Assembly (NCBI GenBank): GCA_038999725.1 | Contig: JAWBWS010000001.1 | Location: 32,001-96,000, forward strand | DNA length: 64,000 nucleotides | Direction of reading: 5' to 3' | Origin: Candidatus Aenigmatarchaeota archaeon | GTDB lineage: Archaea; Aenigmatarchaeota; Aenigmatarchaeia; CG10238-14; SCSR01 | Translations under genes and position numbers: made by a program | Shown: in pieces, positions 30,543 to 63,439 of the stretch | Layout: each line of letters starts with the position of its first letter | Position numbering within the stretch: position 1 is the first letter of the stretch | The notes under the pieces: model-generated | The model's database searches: none | The model's input: only the letters and a program-made list of their open reading frames with translations | What the model was told of the DNA's origin: nothing

Positions 30543-32840
30543 ATGGTTGAAAAAGAAGAAAAAGAAATAAGGCTGAAAGTTGGTGAGCTTACAGCAAGAG
30601 AAGAAGCAGGGAGAGGAATTGTTAGAATTGATTCTTCGAACATGAACAAAATTGGAGTGAAAGAAGGCGATGTGGTTGAAATTGAAGGTTCAAGAAAAAC
30701 TGCTGCAATAGCTGTTAGAGCCTACCCTGCTGATATTGGTTTGAACATAATAAGAATGGATGGAATAGTGAGGAGAAATGCTGGCTCTGGTGTAGGGGAG
30801 TATGTAAAAGTGAGAAAAGCTGAAACGAAAGAAGCGAAAAGTGTGACAATTGCTCCTGCTGAAAGAGGATTTGTGGTTCATGTTTCCCCAGAGTTGGTTA
30901 AACAAAACCTTTACATGAGGCCTGTGGTGAAGGGTGATATTATTGTCCCCTCTCCTGTGGTAAGAAAGAGGTCTAGGGGAGGAGGTTTCTTTGAAGAATT
31001 TTTCGGCACAGACTTTTTTGAGGAATTCTTTTTCACACCATTTCCAGGAGAAACAAGATTTATAGTTACCAATACAGATCCCCCAGGGATAGTTAGAATT
31101 GGTGACATAACTGAGCTAGAGATTTTGCCAGAGCTTCCTGAAGGCTTGAAGTTGGAGGAAAAAGCAATACCTGCTGTAACTTATGAAGATATTGGTGGTA
31201 TAAGAGATGTTATTGAGAAAGTAAGGGAAATGATTGAGTTGCCTTTAAGGCATCCGGAAATTTTTGAAAGACTTGGCATTGAACCTCCAAAAGGAATTTT
31301 GCTTTATGGACCTCCGGGTACAGGTAAAACTCTGCTTGCAAAGGCTGTTGCAAATGAAAGTGGGGCAAACTTCTTCTCAATTTCCGGCCCAGAAATAATG
31401 TCGAAATTTTATGGTGAATCTGAACAAAATTTAAGAAAAATTTTTGAAGAAGCTGAAAAAAATGCTCCTTCAATAATTTTCATTGACGAGATTGATGCCA
31501 TTGCTCCAAAAAGAGAAGAAACTGCGGGAGAGGTTGAAAGAAGGGTAACAAGTCAACTTCTCACGCTTATGGATGGGTTGAAGAAAAGAGGAAAAGTTGT
31601 TGTTATTGCAGCAACAAACAGACCGAATGCTATTGATCCTGCTTTGAGAAGGGGAGGAAGATTTGATAGGGAGATAGAACTCCCTGTTCCAGATAGAGAT
31701 GGGAGACTTGAAATTTTGAAGATTCACACTAGAAACATGCCTTTAGACAAAGATGTTGATCTCAACTGGCTTGCTGACATAACTTATGGCTATGTTGGTG
31801 CAGATCTTATGGCTTTATGTAAGGAAGCAGCAATGTCAGCCCTAAGAAGAGTTTTACCAGAGATAAAGTGGAAGACTGAAGAGGAACTTCCAAAAGAGGT
31901 TATAGAAAAGCTTGTTGTTAAGAAAGAAGATTTCGAAAATGCTTTAAAGGTTGTCGAGCCTTCTGCAATGAGAGAAGTGCTGGTTGAAATCCCAAAAGTT
32001 AAGTGGGAAGACATAGGTGATTTGGAAGAAGTGAAGCAACAACTTAAGGAAATGGTGGAATGGCCTTTGAAACATCCAGAAAGTTTTGAGAGACTTGGGA
32101 TTACCCCTCCAAAAGGAATTTTGCTTTATGGACCTCCAGGCTGTGGAAAAACTCTGCTTGCAAAGGCTGTTGCAAATGAAAGTGGGGCAAACTTCATAAG
32201 TGTTAAAGGGCCTGAAGTTTTTACGATGTGGTTTGGAGAATCTGAAAGAAAGATAAGGGATTTGTTCAGAAGAGCAAGACAAGTTGCTCCAGCCATAATT
32301 TTCTTGGATGAAGTAGATGCTTTGGCTCCGAGAAGAGGTTATTATAGGGGGAGCGCCGCAACAGAAACAGTTGTATCTCAACTTTTGACAGAGCTTTCTG
32401 GGATAGAAGAAACCAAGGGAGTTGTTGTTATTGCAGCAACAAACAGACCAGATATGGTCGATCCTGCTCTGCTCAGGCCTGGGAGAATTGATAGATTTGT
32501 TCTTATACCACCACCAAACTTAAAGGCGAGACTTGAAATTTTGAAGATTCACACTAGAAACATGCCTTTGAAAGGAGTTGATCTTAAAGAAATTGCTGAG
32601 AGAACGGAAGGATTTTCCGGTGCCGACTTAGAAGCACTTTGTAGAGAGGCTGCCATGAATGCATTGAGAGAGGATATAAAAACAAAAGCTGTGGAGAAGA
32701 GGCACTTTGAAGAAGCTTTGAAAAAAATGACGCCAAGCTTGACGAAAGATGTTTTAGCTTATTATGAGAAGTTTGTTGAAAGGGCTAGGAAAGTAAGAAA
32801 GCCTGAAGAAGAAAGAGAACAATTCGGCTACATAGGATAA
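30543..32840 (+). CDS. cdc48: CDC48/VAT AAA+ ATPase
   Basis: N-domain plus two AAA modules ([16 protein letters not shown]); HbYX-like tail GYIG. Confidence 0.97.
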
Positions 32841-35025: not shown

Positions 35026-35137
35026 TAGCCCCGGGCAGATTCGAACTGCCGTGTTCAGGTTTCTTTCTTCATCTTTTATCCGAGCTTTAGACTTTAAGTC
35101 CAAAGCCTGACATCCTTGACCGCTAGATGACGGGGCT
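35026..35137 (-). tRNA. trnQ: tRNA-Gln(TTG) with 39-nt intron at 37/38 (35061-35099)
   Basis: Acceptor AGCCCCG/CGGGGCT; anticodon stem TCAGG/CCTGA; BHB central helix CTTT/AAAG; mature 73 nt. Confidence 0.93.
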
Positions 35138-44686: not shown

Positions 44687-44770
44687 GCCCCAGTAGCTCA
44701 GCCTGGAAGAGCAACTACCTCGTAAAGTCGAAAAAGTAGTGGGTCGAGGGTTCAAATCCCTCCTGGGGCT
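44687..44770 (+). tRNA. trnT: tRNA-Thr(CGT) with 10-nt intron at 37/38
   Basis: GCCCCAG/CTGGGGC-T; stem ACTAC/GTAGT; insert AAGTCGAAAA. Confidence 0.88.
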
Positions 44771-46987: not shown

Positions 46988-47105
46988 GCAGGGGTAGCCA
47001 AGCGGTTAAAGGCGGCAGGCTCAAGTTTGGTTGAGCTTTGATCTGAGATGAAAGAAGGAACCTGCTGGCTTAGTGCCTTCGTGGGTTCGAATCCCACCCC
47101 CTGCA
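46988..47105 (+). tRNA. trnL: tRNA-Leu(CAA) with 34-nt intron at 37/38 (47026-47059)
   Basis: GCAGGGG/CCCCTGC-A; long variable arm; mature 84 nt. Confidence 0.92.
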
Positions 47106-49431: not shown

Positions 49432-49717
49432 GCAGGAGGTCCCTGGTCGGAGAGCTAGGCCCTCTCTACTGGCCTTGCCAGTGGCAAATGGTCTATATGG
49501 CCGACCAAAGCTCGAGGGCGGTGTAGCTCAGTGAACTATTCCAAGCTTGTCGACTGAGAAGTCTTGTCCCACAGGACCGACTTCCCATCAAACCCAGCCA
49601 GGCGAGGAATCGAGCAACTGTAAGATGGGTTGATCGGTGCTTGTGGCAAACAGGATGGAGAAGACGGCTTGGGTTAAATAGTTTGTTGAGTTACATCCAC
49701 CGAGAGCGACCTCCTGC
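49432..49717 (+). ncRNA. ffs: SRP RNA (7S)
   Basis: Terminal helix GCAGGAGGTC/GACCTCCTGC; helix-8 motif CCAGG-CGA-GGAA-TCG-AGCA; long helix 5; T-tract after the 3' end. Confidence 0.88.
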
Positions 49718-52548: not shown

Positions 52549-52630
52549 GGGTCCGTGGTCTAACGGTAGGACGCCAAGAAAGCGGAACCCTCACACGGTG
52601 GAGAATTGGGTTCAACTCCCAACGGACCCA
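52549..52630 (+). tRNA. trnV: tRNA-Val(CAC) with 11-nt intron at 29/30 (52577-52587)
   Basis: GGGTCCG/CGGACCC-A; the stem CCACC/GGTGG forms only after removing AGAAAGCGGAA. Confidence 0.88.
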
Positions 52631-54787: not shown

Positions 54788-55354
54788 CTATGGAGTAAGG
54801 CGCTTAATTTCGTAATAAGTGCAATCATTCTCTCTGTCTACAACCGCCCACACGAAAGTCGCCCTTATATTATGTGCAAGTCTCACTGCCCTCGACATTT
54901 CTGGTAAAGAAAAGGCTGCTTCTTCTGGAACAGCATGAACTACAAATTTTGTGTGTTCATGTGGGGCTTTTGGTCCTCTTACAAGCTTTACTCCTCTTTC
55001 GTAAACTCTGAAATGGGCACCAAATTTAAAACCAGTTTTCACCAGATAGCCTCTCTCCCTCAAGTCGCGATAAACTACAAATTGAGGATGAAATTGGTTT
55101 ACTATTTTTGTTGCAATTTCTAAAAACTCCTTCAAGTCTACATATCTCCTCTTTTCTCCCTCTTTTAAAAAAACTTTCATTCTCCCTTTCTCTAAAAGAT
55201 AGGCTGCCTCCACGAGCTCCAATTCAAGCCTACTGGGATTTTCTTCAGGAACTGGTTTACCAAAACCAGAATCATCATAAAGTCTAACAGCATCCTTATC
55301 CCAAATTATTACTCTGTTTTCCACTAATTCTCCTTCCCAAATTTTCTCTGCCAT
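54788..55354 (-). CDS. endA: tRNA-intron (BHB) splicing endonuclease
   Basis: LVEAAYL, VYRDLRERGY, GFKFGAHFRVY, EH, AVVD...YY. Confidence 0.93.
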   Translation of the reverse strand: MAEKIWEGELVENRVIIWDKDAVRLYDDSGFGKPVPEENPSRLELELVEAAYLLEKGRMKVFLKEGEKRRYVDLKEFLEIATKIVNQFHPQFVVYRDLRERGYLVKTGFKFGAHFRVYERGVKLVRGPKAPHEHTKFVVHAVPEEAAFSLPEMSRAVRLAHNIRATFVWAVVDRENDCTYYEIKRLTP

Positions 55355-61234: not shown

Positions 61235-61328
61235 GCCTCGTTAGCTCAGTTGGTAGAGCATCCGAAGAGTTAAAACTCTGGTGAACCTTGTAAGCGGAGG
61301 GTCGTGGGTTCAAATCCCACACGAGGCT
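61235..61328 (+). tRNA. trnT: tRNA-Thr(TGT) with 21-nt intron at 30/31 (61265-61285)
   Basis: BHB: CATC/GGTG central helix, AGAGT/ACTCT inner helix; mature 73 nt. Confidence 0.92.
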
Positions 61329-61340
61329 TTCAAGCAAATT

Positions 61341-62375
61341 TTACAATAGATCTATGTCTAGTAATCTCGCCAAGTTTGAGAGATTTAAATTTTTTATTAG
61401 AGAAAAAAGGAATGGTTTATCAGAAATTTTTGATAAAAACCATTTCACCAACAATCCTTTTTTTATGGGCCAGGCAAGTCTTCCTTTCCATTTTTTATCA
61501 TAATTCTCCATCAAAAAATCTCTTGAGAAATTGTTTGTTTCTATAGCTTTTACTATAGCATCTCCAGCAATCTCTGCGCAAATCTTATTGTACACCAGAC
61601 CACCTGCAGAAAAAGGTTTAACCTGACAAGCAGCATCTCCTACAAGCAAAACATTATCAGAAACTGACTCTTCAATTAAACCATATCTTATCACATCACC
61701 TATCCTATTAGAAAAAATTTTTTTATCAAACCTTAATTTTAGGAAATTTTCCAAATAGTTGTTTGGGTTTTTGTTTGTCATTAAACCAACTCTAGCGATT
61801 TTTTCATTTTCGGGAACAACCCAAGCAAAGGAGCCTGGAGCAATTTTGGAACCAAAATGGAGTTCAACACTCCTAGCTTCAAAATTTGACTCCACCTTCA
61901 CTTGTAAAGCAAATAGAAAATTTTTGGGCTGGTTTATTCCAGCTTTTTTGGCAACAGTTGAATTTGGGCCATCTGCACCTACTAGAACCTTACATTTAAA
62001 TTTTCCCTTGTTAGTAAAAATTGTGTTGCCTTTGAAATCTAAAAATCTTGTTGATGTTTTAATTTCAGCTCCAGCTTTTTCAGCCCTTCTTGCAAGCCAT
62101 AAATCATATTTTCTCCTATCTAAAACAAACATTCTTTCTCTTGAGTTAATTTCAAAAAATTTATCTCCAGAGAAAAATCTTGCTTTATCAATTTTGTTTA
62201 AAATCATATCTTTTGGAATTTTACCTATCCTTTTACTAACCAAGCCTGTGCATTGAACAGGCTCTCCAATTTTTGAGTGCTCTTCTAATATTAAGACTGT
62301 GTACCCTTTTCTGGCAACATTCTCACCTGTGATACAACCAGCAGGGCCTGCGCCAACAATAATACAATCGAACAA
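61341..62375 (-). CDS. Geranylgeranyl reductase-family FAD oxidoreductase
   Basis: GAGPAG, GADG, FAWVVP, VGDAA. Confidence 0.9.
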   Translation of the reverse strand: MFDCIIVGAGPAGCITGENVARKGYTVLILEEHSKIGEPVQCTGLVSKRIGKIPKDMILNKIDKARFFSGDKFFEINSRERMFVLDRRKYDLWLARRAEKAGAEIKTSTRFLDFKGNTIFTNKGKFKCKVLVGADGPNSTVAKKAGINQPKNFLFALQVKVESNFEARSVELHFGSKIAPGSFAWVVPENEKIARVGLMTNKNPNNYLENFLKLRFDKKIFSNRIGDVIRYGLIEESVSDNVLLVGDAACQVKPFSAGGLVYNKICAEIAGDAIVKAIETNNFSRDFLMENYDKKWKGRLAWPIKKGLLVKWFLSKISDKPFLFSLIKNLNLSNLARLLDIDLL

Positions 62376-62520
62376 ATCAATCCCCTAAACAAATATAATA
62401 TCCAAAAATTAAAATCCATCTAGAAGATCTTGGCATAACGAAACATTAGAATAAAAGATGATTGGAAACATTCACTAAAATAATAGTTGATTAATTTTAC
62501 TCTGTTCAATAATTCTCATC

Positions 62521-63266
62521 TTACCTACCAAAATTCCTTTGTATAGAGTTATACCATTTAATTGCCTTAATCAAATCTTTTTTGGAGAAATCTGGCCAAA
62601 GCTTTTTGGTAACATAAATTTCTGCATAAGATGCTTGTATCAACATGAAGTTTGAAAGTCTGGAAAAGCCCCCAGTCCTTATCACAAGGTCAAGAGGAGC
62701 AGGAACAAGCAAATTAGCTTCTATGTCTTTTTCTGTTACTTCTACTTTACCAATTTTTATCGCTTTTTCTACAATTTTTTTTATCGCTTGAGTTAATTCA
62801 AATTTGCTTCCGTAGGCTATCATTATGTTTAAAACCCTTTCCTGATATTTTGCGGTATTTTGCATTATTTTCCCCATAAGCTTAACGAGCTTTGGTGGTA
62901 ATTTTTCAAGGTCGCCAATAAACCTAACTTTGACTTGATATTTATCCAAAAATCCCCCTTCCTTCTTTTTCCCCCTCTCCCACTTTTTCAAATAATTGTA
63001 GAAAATCTTGAAAATTTCTTCCAATTCCCTTTTTGGTCTATTCAAGTTTTCTGTAGATAAAACATATGCCGAAACTTGTGGTATTCCTAACTCTAGACAC
63101 CAGTTCAAAAACTCTTCAAACTTTTTTGTGCTTGTGAGAGTTTATCCTCTCAACAATTTGCACCATATTTATGTCCTTCCCAAGGTTGTAAACCATGAAG
63201 TCTTGCCCATCTTCTGTTTCCATCCAAAATTATTCCTAGATGATTTGGGAGTGTCAACTCGTTCAT
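62521..63266 (-). CDS. uppS: Cis-prenyltransferase (UppS), join(63266..63158, 63125..62521), 237 aa, with a 32-nt intron
   Basis: Exon 1 encodes PNHLGIILDGNRRWA...EGHKYGA; exon 2 encodes KFEEFLNWC...STEN...IRTGG..RLSNF. Confidence 0.9.
63126..63157 (-). other. BHB-type pre-mRNA intron in uppS
   Basis: GTGC-AA^A-TTGTTGAGAG-GATAAA-CTCTCACAA-GCAC-AA^A; removal restores the frame (GGT GCA AAA AAG TTT). Confidence 0.85.
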
Positions 63267-63335
63267 CGATACACCTCCATTTTTTCATAAATTTTAAATA
63301 ATATAAATATTTTTAAAAACAAAAAAGTTTGAAAT

Positions 63336-63439
63336 GGGGTCGTCGTCTAACCAGGTAGGACAGCAGGCTCCAGGTTCAATGGAGCTCTGACAAAAGATGA
63401 AGAAACCTGTATGTGAGGGTTCAAATCCCTCCGACCCCA
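63336..63439 (+). tRNA. trnW: tRNA-Trp(CCA) with 31-nt intron at 37/38 (63374-63404)
   Basis: GGGGTCG/CGACCCC-A; stem GCAGG/CCTGT; mature 73 nt. Confidence 0.93.

Follow-up and report, generated by a model that had tools for sequence, protein, structure and literature searches.

A probable tRNA-type intron in the uppS message of an Aenigmatarchaeota archaeon, and similar micro-introns in other essential genes

Introns of the tRNA type in archaeal protein genes

The archaeal protein genes known to contain introns of the bulge-helix-bulge (BHB) type are cbf5 and HVO_1309, and more such genes probably await discovery, according to a 2023 review (PMC10485636). The cbf5 pre-mRNA intron of the Crenarchaeota (Watanabe 2002; Yoshinari 2006; Yokobori 2009; PMC2738675; PMC10485636) was named as the classic case in a first-pass annotation of the DNA studied here, in agreement with the literature (PMC5829648; PMC10485636). 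The HVO_1309 mRNA of Haloferax volcanii is cut by the splicing endonuclease EndA (Schwarz et al. 2020, PMC7714728; PMC10485636).

The window analyzed here is a stretch of 64,000 nt from a metagenome-assembled genome of a hot-spring archaeon of the Aenigmatarchaeota (G000; 729,769 bases in 9 contigs, 93% complete). Positions refer to the window unless they are prefixed with a genome and contig. The window contains a uppS gene whose reading frame is broken by 32 nt that have the build of a BHB intron. The resemblance to cbf5 is as follows: in both instances a short intron with a relaxed BHB motif interrupts a protein-coding gene, the cbf5 intron being cut by the tRNA-splicing endonuclease and the ends then ligated, and in both the distribution among related species is patchy, which for cbf5 has been attributed to gain and loss. 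The uppS intron differs from the crenarchaeal one in its host lineage (a DPANN archaeon), in its host gene, and in the enzyme at hand, a single-copy alpha4-like EndA instead of the (alpha-beta)2 form. Furthermore, some species have two intron sites in uppS, and the lineage also harbors introns in aEF-2, rtcB and cbf5, some of them of only 13-15 nt. Like HVO_1309, the uppS message would be an mRNA substrate of an archaeal splicing endonuclease outside the Crenarchaeota; the uppS intron sits inside the reading frame and has to be removed to make the protein at all, and the comparison with HVO_1309 does not extend to the details of its site. The introns of archaeal tRNA and rRNA share the 4-bp helix, the 3-nt bulges, the cut rule and the presumed enzymes with the uppS intron, but here the host RNA is a translated message, and an unspliced copy can be translated into a truncated peptide.

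In HAC1/XBP1 splicing, the dedicated endonuclease Ire1 cuts the message at stem-loops, a tRNA ligase (RtcB in animals) joins the ends, the reading frame changes, and the process is regulated by stress. The uppS message would be similar in that a protein-coding mRNA is cut at stem-loops and joined by a tRNA-type ligase with a change in frame; it differs in that the nuclease is not Ire1 and in that nothing hints at regulation of uppS by stress. This unconventional mRNA splicing is mentioned for eukaryotes in PMC8718801 and in titles cited by PMC5829648. Our literature search returned no report of such introns in uppS, in aEF-2 or in the protein genes of DPANN archaea. Introns of the tRNA type are very rare in archaeal protein genes. 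The genes uppS and aEF-2 would represent further hosts, no homing-endonuclease gene being conspicuous beside uppS, and the splicing would take place in a cell whose transcription and translation are coupled.

The interrupted uppS gene and the fold of its insert

On the minus strand, an open reading frame starts with the ATG at 63266 and ends after 38 amino acids (...GHKYGANC) at a TGA (63152-63150), while the remainder of uppS lies in a different frame, in which a TAA (63144-63142) follows; both stop codons are inside the insert. Taking out 63157..63126 joins 109 and 602 nt into 237 codons with the junction GHKYGA/KKFEEFLNWC (the slash marks the joint). Exon 1 matches positions 1-25 of the Pfam profile PF01255 with 24.9 bits, slightly below the 27-bit cut-off, and exon 2 matches positions 31-219 with 181.5 bits (E 2.2e-53); the two pieces abut like the profile match of intact orthologs, which runs from 1 to 219, and together give a full-length match to the UppS/cis-prenyltransferase family. 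The first-pass annotation had described an N-terminal UppS piece that ends at the TGA out of frame with the rest of the protein, and had placed a Shine-Dalgarno motif GGAGGTG ahead of the ATG at 63266. The reading frames and the two profile pieces agree with the former, and the motif is found at 63278-63272, with the similar sequences GAGGTG and GGGGTGA ahead of the uppS start in relatives. It also holds that cutting by the EndA rule takes out exactly 32 nt and leaves a gene of 237 codons. The resulting junction is the one found in intronless orthologs: in the same genus, uppS is uninterrupted in genomes G007 (GHKHGAKKFEEFLKWC) and G002 (GHKYGAKNFENFLRWC), both of which align to the spliced sequence without an indel; an alignment of this kind was among the checks proposed in the annotation. 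The genomes G000 and G007 are collinear on both sides of the intron, and their 7152-nt collinear alignment has a 32-nt gap at the uppS insert. A second, intact uppS, which the annotation had named as an observation that would speak against an intron, was not found; PF01255 has no other match in the 93%-complete genome. The coordinates of all features are collected in Table 1.

Table 1. Features of the uppS locus, the presumed splicing enzymes, and the introns and tRNA genes discussed in the text.
Feature	Position	Strand	Remarks
Shine-Dalgarno-like GGAGGTG	63272..63278	-	5 nt before the uppS ATG
uppS exon 1	63158..63266	-	ATG 63266-63264; 36 full codons and 1 base of a split Lys codon; holds HLGIILDGNRRWA...GHKYGA
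uppS intron, 32 nt	63126..63157	-	A, 25-nt hairpin, GCAC, AA; predicted from ortholog gap, fold and EndA rule
uppS exon 2	62521..63125	-	completes the split codon with 2 bases, then 200 codons and the stop (62523-62521)
Central helix, 5' strand GTGC	63160..63163	-	exonic, from codons GGT GCA; pairs with 63131-63128 (MFE and centroid)
5' bulge AAA	63157..63159	-	unpaired in MFE fold; predicted cut between 63158 and 63157
Inner hairpin TTGT-T-GAGAG / CTCTC-ACAA, loop GATAAA	63132..63156	-	9 pairs, MFE and centroid
Central helix, 3' strand GCAC	63128..63131	-	intronic; MFE fold
3' bulge AAA	63125..63127	-	cut predicted at 63126/63125; not followed by a stable outer helix
endA, tRNA-splicing endonuclease, 188 aa	54788-55354	-	Pfam PF02778 and PF01974; only PF01974 match in G000
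rtcB	G000:C2:9735-11039		E 2.2e-165; one RtcB in the genome
aEF-2 intron, 20 nt	G000:C1:225002-225021	-	outside the window; locus L083/L084; filtered genome scan
aEF-2 intron, 13 nt	G000:C1:225158-225170	-	outside the window; locus L083/L084; inspection
rtcB introns, 2 x 19 nt	G007:C1:32344-32362 and 32429-32447		L124; Pfam; absent from G000
cbf5 intron, 15 nt	G007:C6:1131-1145	-	L119; Pfam; absent from G000
tRNA genes, 6, 82-118 nt	35026-35137 (-), 44687-44770, 46988-47105, 52549-52630, 61235-61328, 63336-63439 (+)		Rfam

The 67-nt stretch with the uppS intron has an MFE of -15.0 kcal/mol (z -3.26), and none of 200 shuffled sequences is equally stable. Its MFE and centroid structures both return the fold drawn in the first-pass annotation, i.e., a GTGC/GCAC helix with AAA bulges and an inner hairpin. 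In what follows, site B is the codon that is interrupted in G000, and site A is a second intron position in uppS, inside DG/NRRW. The 4-bp central helix between the cut sites has 4/4 pairs in all five variants at site B and in all three at site A, whereas the chance rate of 4/4 central pairs at random positions of G000 is 2.4%. The canonical hBHBh' form, with both 3-nt bulges closed by helices on each side, is not what we find: only the 5' AAA has a helix on either side, namely the central helix and the inner hairpin, and the outer helix (H1) has no pairs in any of the site-B variants and 1-3 pairs at site A. Since no outer helix closes the 3' AAA, the uppS motif represents the relaxed BHB form, which is how the annotation had classified it on account of a weak outer helix. 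An automatic listing gives two to six equivalent peptide-restoring deletions per uppS case. In G000, six deletions restore the conserved peptide, and exactly one of these combines 4/4 central pairs with the geometry of an EndA substrate; the same holds for each of the 11 uppS instances (8 distinct), which have exactly one such frame-restoring deletion.

Probable introns in related genomes and in other genes

A PF01255 match at E<=1e-10 is present in 89 of the 117 genomes of the order. Away from contig ends, this match is broken at profile position 23-24 in four genomes: G000, G001 and G004, which belong to the same genus, and G078 from another genus. The uppS genes of G004 and G001 contain 29 nt at site B and 33 nt at site A, and that of G078 contains 52 nt at site B and 26 nt at site A. 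Among metagenome contigs, L064 and L073 have a single insert, of 30 nt at site B, whereas L067 has 29 nt at site B and 21 nt at site A. This makes five distinct variants at site B (29-52 nt) and three at site A (21-33 nt), and in all eight the EndA cut rule, applied to the DNA, yields the sequence of the orthologs without an indel.

The pairing is retained while the sequences change. At site B, every one of the 60 cells is paired and, of the 13 pairs, five have changed on both sides, these two-sided changes falling on five of the nine pairs of the inner hairpin; none of 500 shuffles matches this, and slid controls are 26-53% paired with 0-1 double changes, although the counts are only indicative because the samples are small (five distinct sequences at site B and three at site A) and the sequences are related. 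At site A, the helix ATGG/CCAT of G004 is ACGG/CCGT in G078 and L067, the exonic change being a synonymous one from GAT to GAC (Asp). Changes of the central helix among the uppS variants amount to one G-C to G-U and one double change, and the direction of the covariation is uniform across the uppS sites. The 5' strand of the uppS central helix consists of codons, and synonymous sites therefore covary with the intron; this points to selection on synonymous codon positions that keeps the RNA helix.

A covariance model of the site-B intron found no further copies in G000, G001, G004 and G078, the best other match having E 0.07, and thus the intron is not a multi-copy element in these four genomes. 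A pattern scan for the site-B core in genome contigs returned only the three known relatives and four chance matches in bacteria; in the metagenomes, 3 of 14 loci were uppS.

Inserts of this type also occur in the gene for the elongation factor aEF-2, which is interrupted twice in G000. Removal of both introns by the EndA rule gives EEMAGK/VMFTWFDEQE... and ...TPGHVD/FGGDV, as in intronless congeners, and the Pfam GTP_EFTU positions over the three exons (2-32, 47-81 and 82-187) follow one another. In total, aEF-2 has 16 micro-introns of 13-32 nt at eight sites in six genomes, with up to five in one gene. Five of these genomes belong to other genera of the family and contain two to five introns each, of 14-32 nt (G021, locus L096; G017, L102; G040, L095; G043, L097; G080, L098); in G021 there are five within about 110 codons. 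The EndA rule works in 16 of 16, with central pairs of 4/4 in 15 and 3/4 in one. At the site HVD/FGG the helix is GTGG/CCAT, GTCG/CGAC or GTTG/CAAC, which means that the wobble base of the Val codon covaries with an intron base, and such covariation of exonic synonymous bases with intron bases is seen at three aEF-2 sites. The last aEF-2 exon, of 631 residues, has 57 matches that span nearly all of it, 55 of which are without an internal stop.

A comparison of the whole genomes of G000 and G007 (447 kb aligned), which catches only introns that differ between the two, reveals uppS and the two aEF-2 introns as protein-coding differences on the side of G000 and two rtcB introns and one cbf5 intron on the side of G007. 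The remaining differences are introns of rRNA and tRNA and indels at 5' ends. The intron in uppS belongs to a group of micro-introns that are found in essential genes across the lineage. Micro-introns give essential genes a frameshifted or truncated appearance, and gene callers and completeness estimates of DPANN genomes will therefore miss them. All introns seen in protein genes (uppS, aEF-2, rtcB and cbf5) are located within the first ~120 codons, those of aEF-2 within ~110. The first base is A in 21 of the 24 introns of uppS and aEF-2, and the last two are AA in 17 of the 24.

A genome-wide scan of apparent frameshifts for BHB motifs had been suggested in the first-pass annotation; it ranked the uppS insert first and added aEF-2 intron 2. 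Of 7625 ORF-joining BHB-like candidates in G000, the filter for MFE consistency left 55, among which the uppS insert is top by energy per base and the only real ones are uppS and aEF-2 intron 2. Unfiltered scans for BHB motifs plus ORF joining gave 13,202 and later 923 candidates, mainly at gene boundaries, and were set aside. Candidates near C1 228160 and C1 181594 were, by eye, plain coding sequence in another frame. The split matches flagged by tblastn between G000 and G007 (G000 C2 113.9k, 120.7k and 154.2k; G007 C1 44.7k, C2 6.6k and C4 50.0k) were conserved antisense or RNA-gene 'ORFs' and were set aside as not protein-coding or not BHB-like; the one at G007 C2 6528-6543 looks, by eye, like a tRNA T-loop intron.

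Presumed splicing enzymes, alternative explanations and intron history

The organism encodes a splicing endonuclease and an RNA ligase, EndA and RtcB, each once. The EndA gene that the annotation had placed at 54788 is there, with both Pfam domains, and we regard its product as the presumed cutting enzyme of the uppS intron. It aligns over its full length to the EndA of M. jannaschii (1a79), with a six-residue insertion, LVRGPK, just before the catalytic His region. A single subunit of ~180 aa with N- and C-terminal domains, and no gene for a second subunit, would place it with the alpha4 type. Relaxed motifs are counted among the substrates of EndA enzymes of broad specificity; cleavage of such motifs has been shown only for the (alpha-beta)2 and epsilon2 types, specificity-widening loops lie near the catalytic His, and DPANN alpha4 enzymes with inserts co-occur with disrupted tRNA genes (PMC5829648). 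The relaxed 3' site, paired with a single-copy alpha4-like EndA, is an observation that speaks against a BHB intron in uppS.

Nevertheless, positions 63157..63126 very probably represent a tRNA-type (BHB) intron of the uppS pre-mRNA that is cut by EndA and joined by RtcB; cleavage, ligation and the enzymes responsible we infer from DNA. In the transcript, the exonic GTGC would pair with the intronic GCAC, leaving an AAA bulge with the 9-bp hairpin stacked on it on the 5' side and an AAA stretch on the 3' side. The single EndA would then cut each AAA behind its second base, and ligation of the exons by RtcB would give the mature mRNA for a cis-prenyltransferase of 237 aa, while an unspliced message would yield the 38-aa peptide only. 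If this is the case, then the sole uppS, which encodes the lipid-carrier enzyme, and aEF-2 can be expressed only after their messages have been cut and rejoined, with one EndA to do so. The 24 introns at 10 sites, which go down to 13 nt and many of which are without an outer helix, would constitute a natural substrate set that defines what an alpha4-like EndA of DPANN archaea must accept.

Could the 32 nt be an artefact of assembly or binning, absent from the real genome? The genome is metagenome-assembled and in nine contigs, and the annotation had itself raised an assembly artefact. However, the insert is spanned by contigs from three samples in two studies, namely from the metagenome X1, from X3 (a different sample) and from X5 (a different study); the X3 contig (depth 9.9) covers 62300-63362 with 0 mismatches, the 175-nt X5 contig covers 63058-63232 with one mismatch and no gap, and no contig from these metagenomes omits the 32 nt. 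With related inserts in four other assemblies and in three metagenome contigs (L064, L073 and L067), an artefact has a practically negligible chance of being the explanation. A further alternative is a decaying gene, in which the 32 nt would be an insertion mutation in a cell that does without UppS or takes the carrier from its host. This would suit a DPANN archaeon with a 730-kb genome, and 28 of the 117 genomes of the order have no PF01255 match at E<=1e-10, so that members of this group may be able to lose uppS. The gene is, however, under purifying selection: over the 193 codons of the C-terminal exon, pairs with intron-bearing alleles have dN/dS values of 0.03-0.09 (0.09 for G000-G004, 0.068 for G000-G002, 0.043 for G078-G076), intronless pairs having 0.054 and 0.074, and G004 and G001 differ by six synonymous and no non-synonymous substitutions. 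The exons contain no other stop codons or frameshifts, eight distinct inserts of differing lengths all keep the structure and a precisely removable frame, and the same kind of insert is found in the essential aEF-2. Decay of this uppS copy is thus highly improbable.

An alternative explanation is that the ribosome gets past the insert, through programmed frameshifting, read-through of the stop codon or translational bypassing. The bypassing site of phage T4 gene 60 has a hairpin after the stop codon and a flanking repeat, and uppS likewise has a stable hairpin just past its stop and a GCA repeat on both sides. However, the TGA of the exon-1 frame precedes the last stop of the exon-2 frame, which leaves the two frames no overlap, and therefore no single shift can join the exons. 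Landing on the second GCA would lead into the wrong frame, and bypassing explains neither the covariation of an exonic synonymous site with an intronic base nor the constant distance that the helix keeps to either junction (8/8 distinct uppS introns, 15/16 in aEF-2). We consider a translational explanation scarcely credible. Removal from the RNA by an activity other than EndA and RtcB, i.e., another nuclease or ligase, would account for a 3' site that lacks the outer helix required by canonical alpha4 EndA (PMC5829648). However, in 23 of 24 cases (distinct or instance-level) both sites have precisely the helix and bulge geometry and the cut offsets of EndA substrates, the rRNA and tRNA genes of the same genome hold many introns of the same build, and the genome has one EndA and one RtcB only; this makes the involvement of other enzymes very unlikely.

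The intron-bearing uppS alleles do not form one clade. In a tree of the C-terminal exon (32 of 45 loci, the other 13 being missed by the motif filter), their distribution implies three changes, and none of 200 bootstrap trees implies a single one, so that a single recent origin is rejected; G078 is placed beside the intronless G076 and G077. Gain and loss of the intron are indistinguishable in this tree. G078 and G076/G077 are 95.8% identical from a point that coincides exactly with the 3' end of intron B (L078, G078:C36:1889-4421, position 1570); upstream of this breakpoint there is no match to G076/G077 and exon 2 is merely 65% identical, whereas the upstream part is collinear with G004 at ~70% identity. 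Two explanations fit this pattern: a recombination event whose crossover fell at the intron boundary, or a 4.4-kb contig that is chimeric. Homologous introns occupy identical codons in different genera, beside close relatives that lack them, and through this presence and absence it should be possible to test directly, in a prokaryote, how protein genes gain and lose introns. It is possible, and we advance the idea only tentatively, that EndA-type micro-introns of 13-52 nt have spread into the 5' parts of the essential genes uppS, aEF-2, rtcB and cbf5 in this family of Aenigmatarchaeota and are still being gained, lost or recombined between species, which is what the patchiness and the G078 breakpoint would then mean. 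If this were the case, then the family would show intron-rich protein genes at work in a prokaryote, and the production of RtcB and of the elongation factor would itself require the splicing system.

Four of the six tRNA genes in the window are at least 94 nt long (94-118 nt) and are therefore interrupted, and ARAGORN recovers only two of the six, with nonsense anticodons. One tRNA gene lies just upstream of uppS on the opposite strand; inside it, 63356 is followed directly by 63414 in contigs of three runs, with 57 nt skipped, a joint with only 21 bases on the shorter side that may derive from tRNA genes of other organisms. Relative to G007, an apparent rRNA operon of G000 contains an 87-nt insert with a canonical BHB (CGGT aga ... 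ACCG aag; G000:C4:66377-66463), and several other inserts are peculiar to G007, at C5 50-55 kb. An archaeal SRP RNA is located at 49433-49716 on the plus strand (Rfam RF01857, 113 bits).
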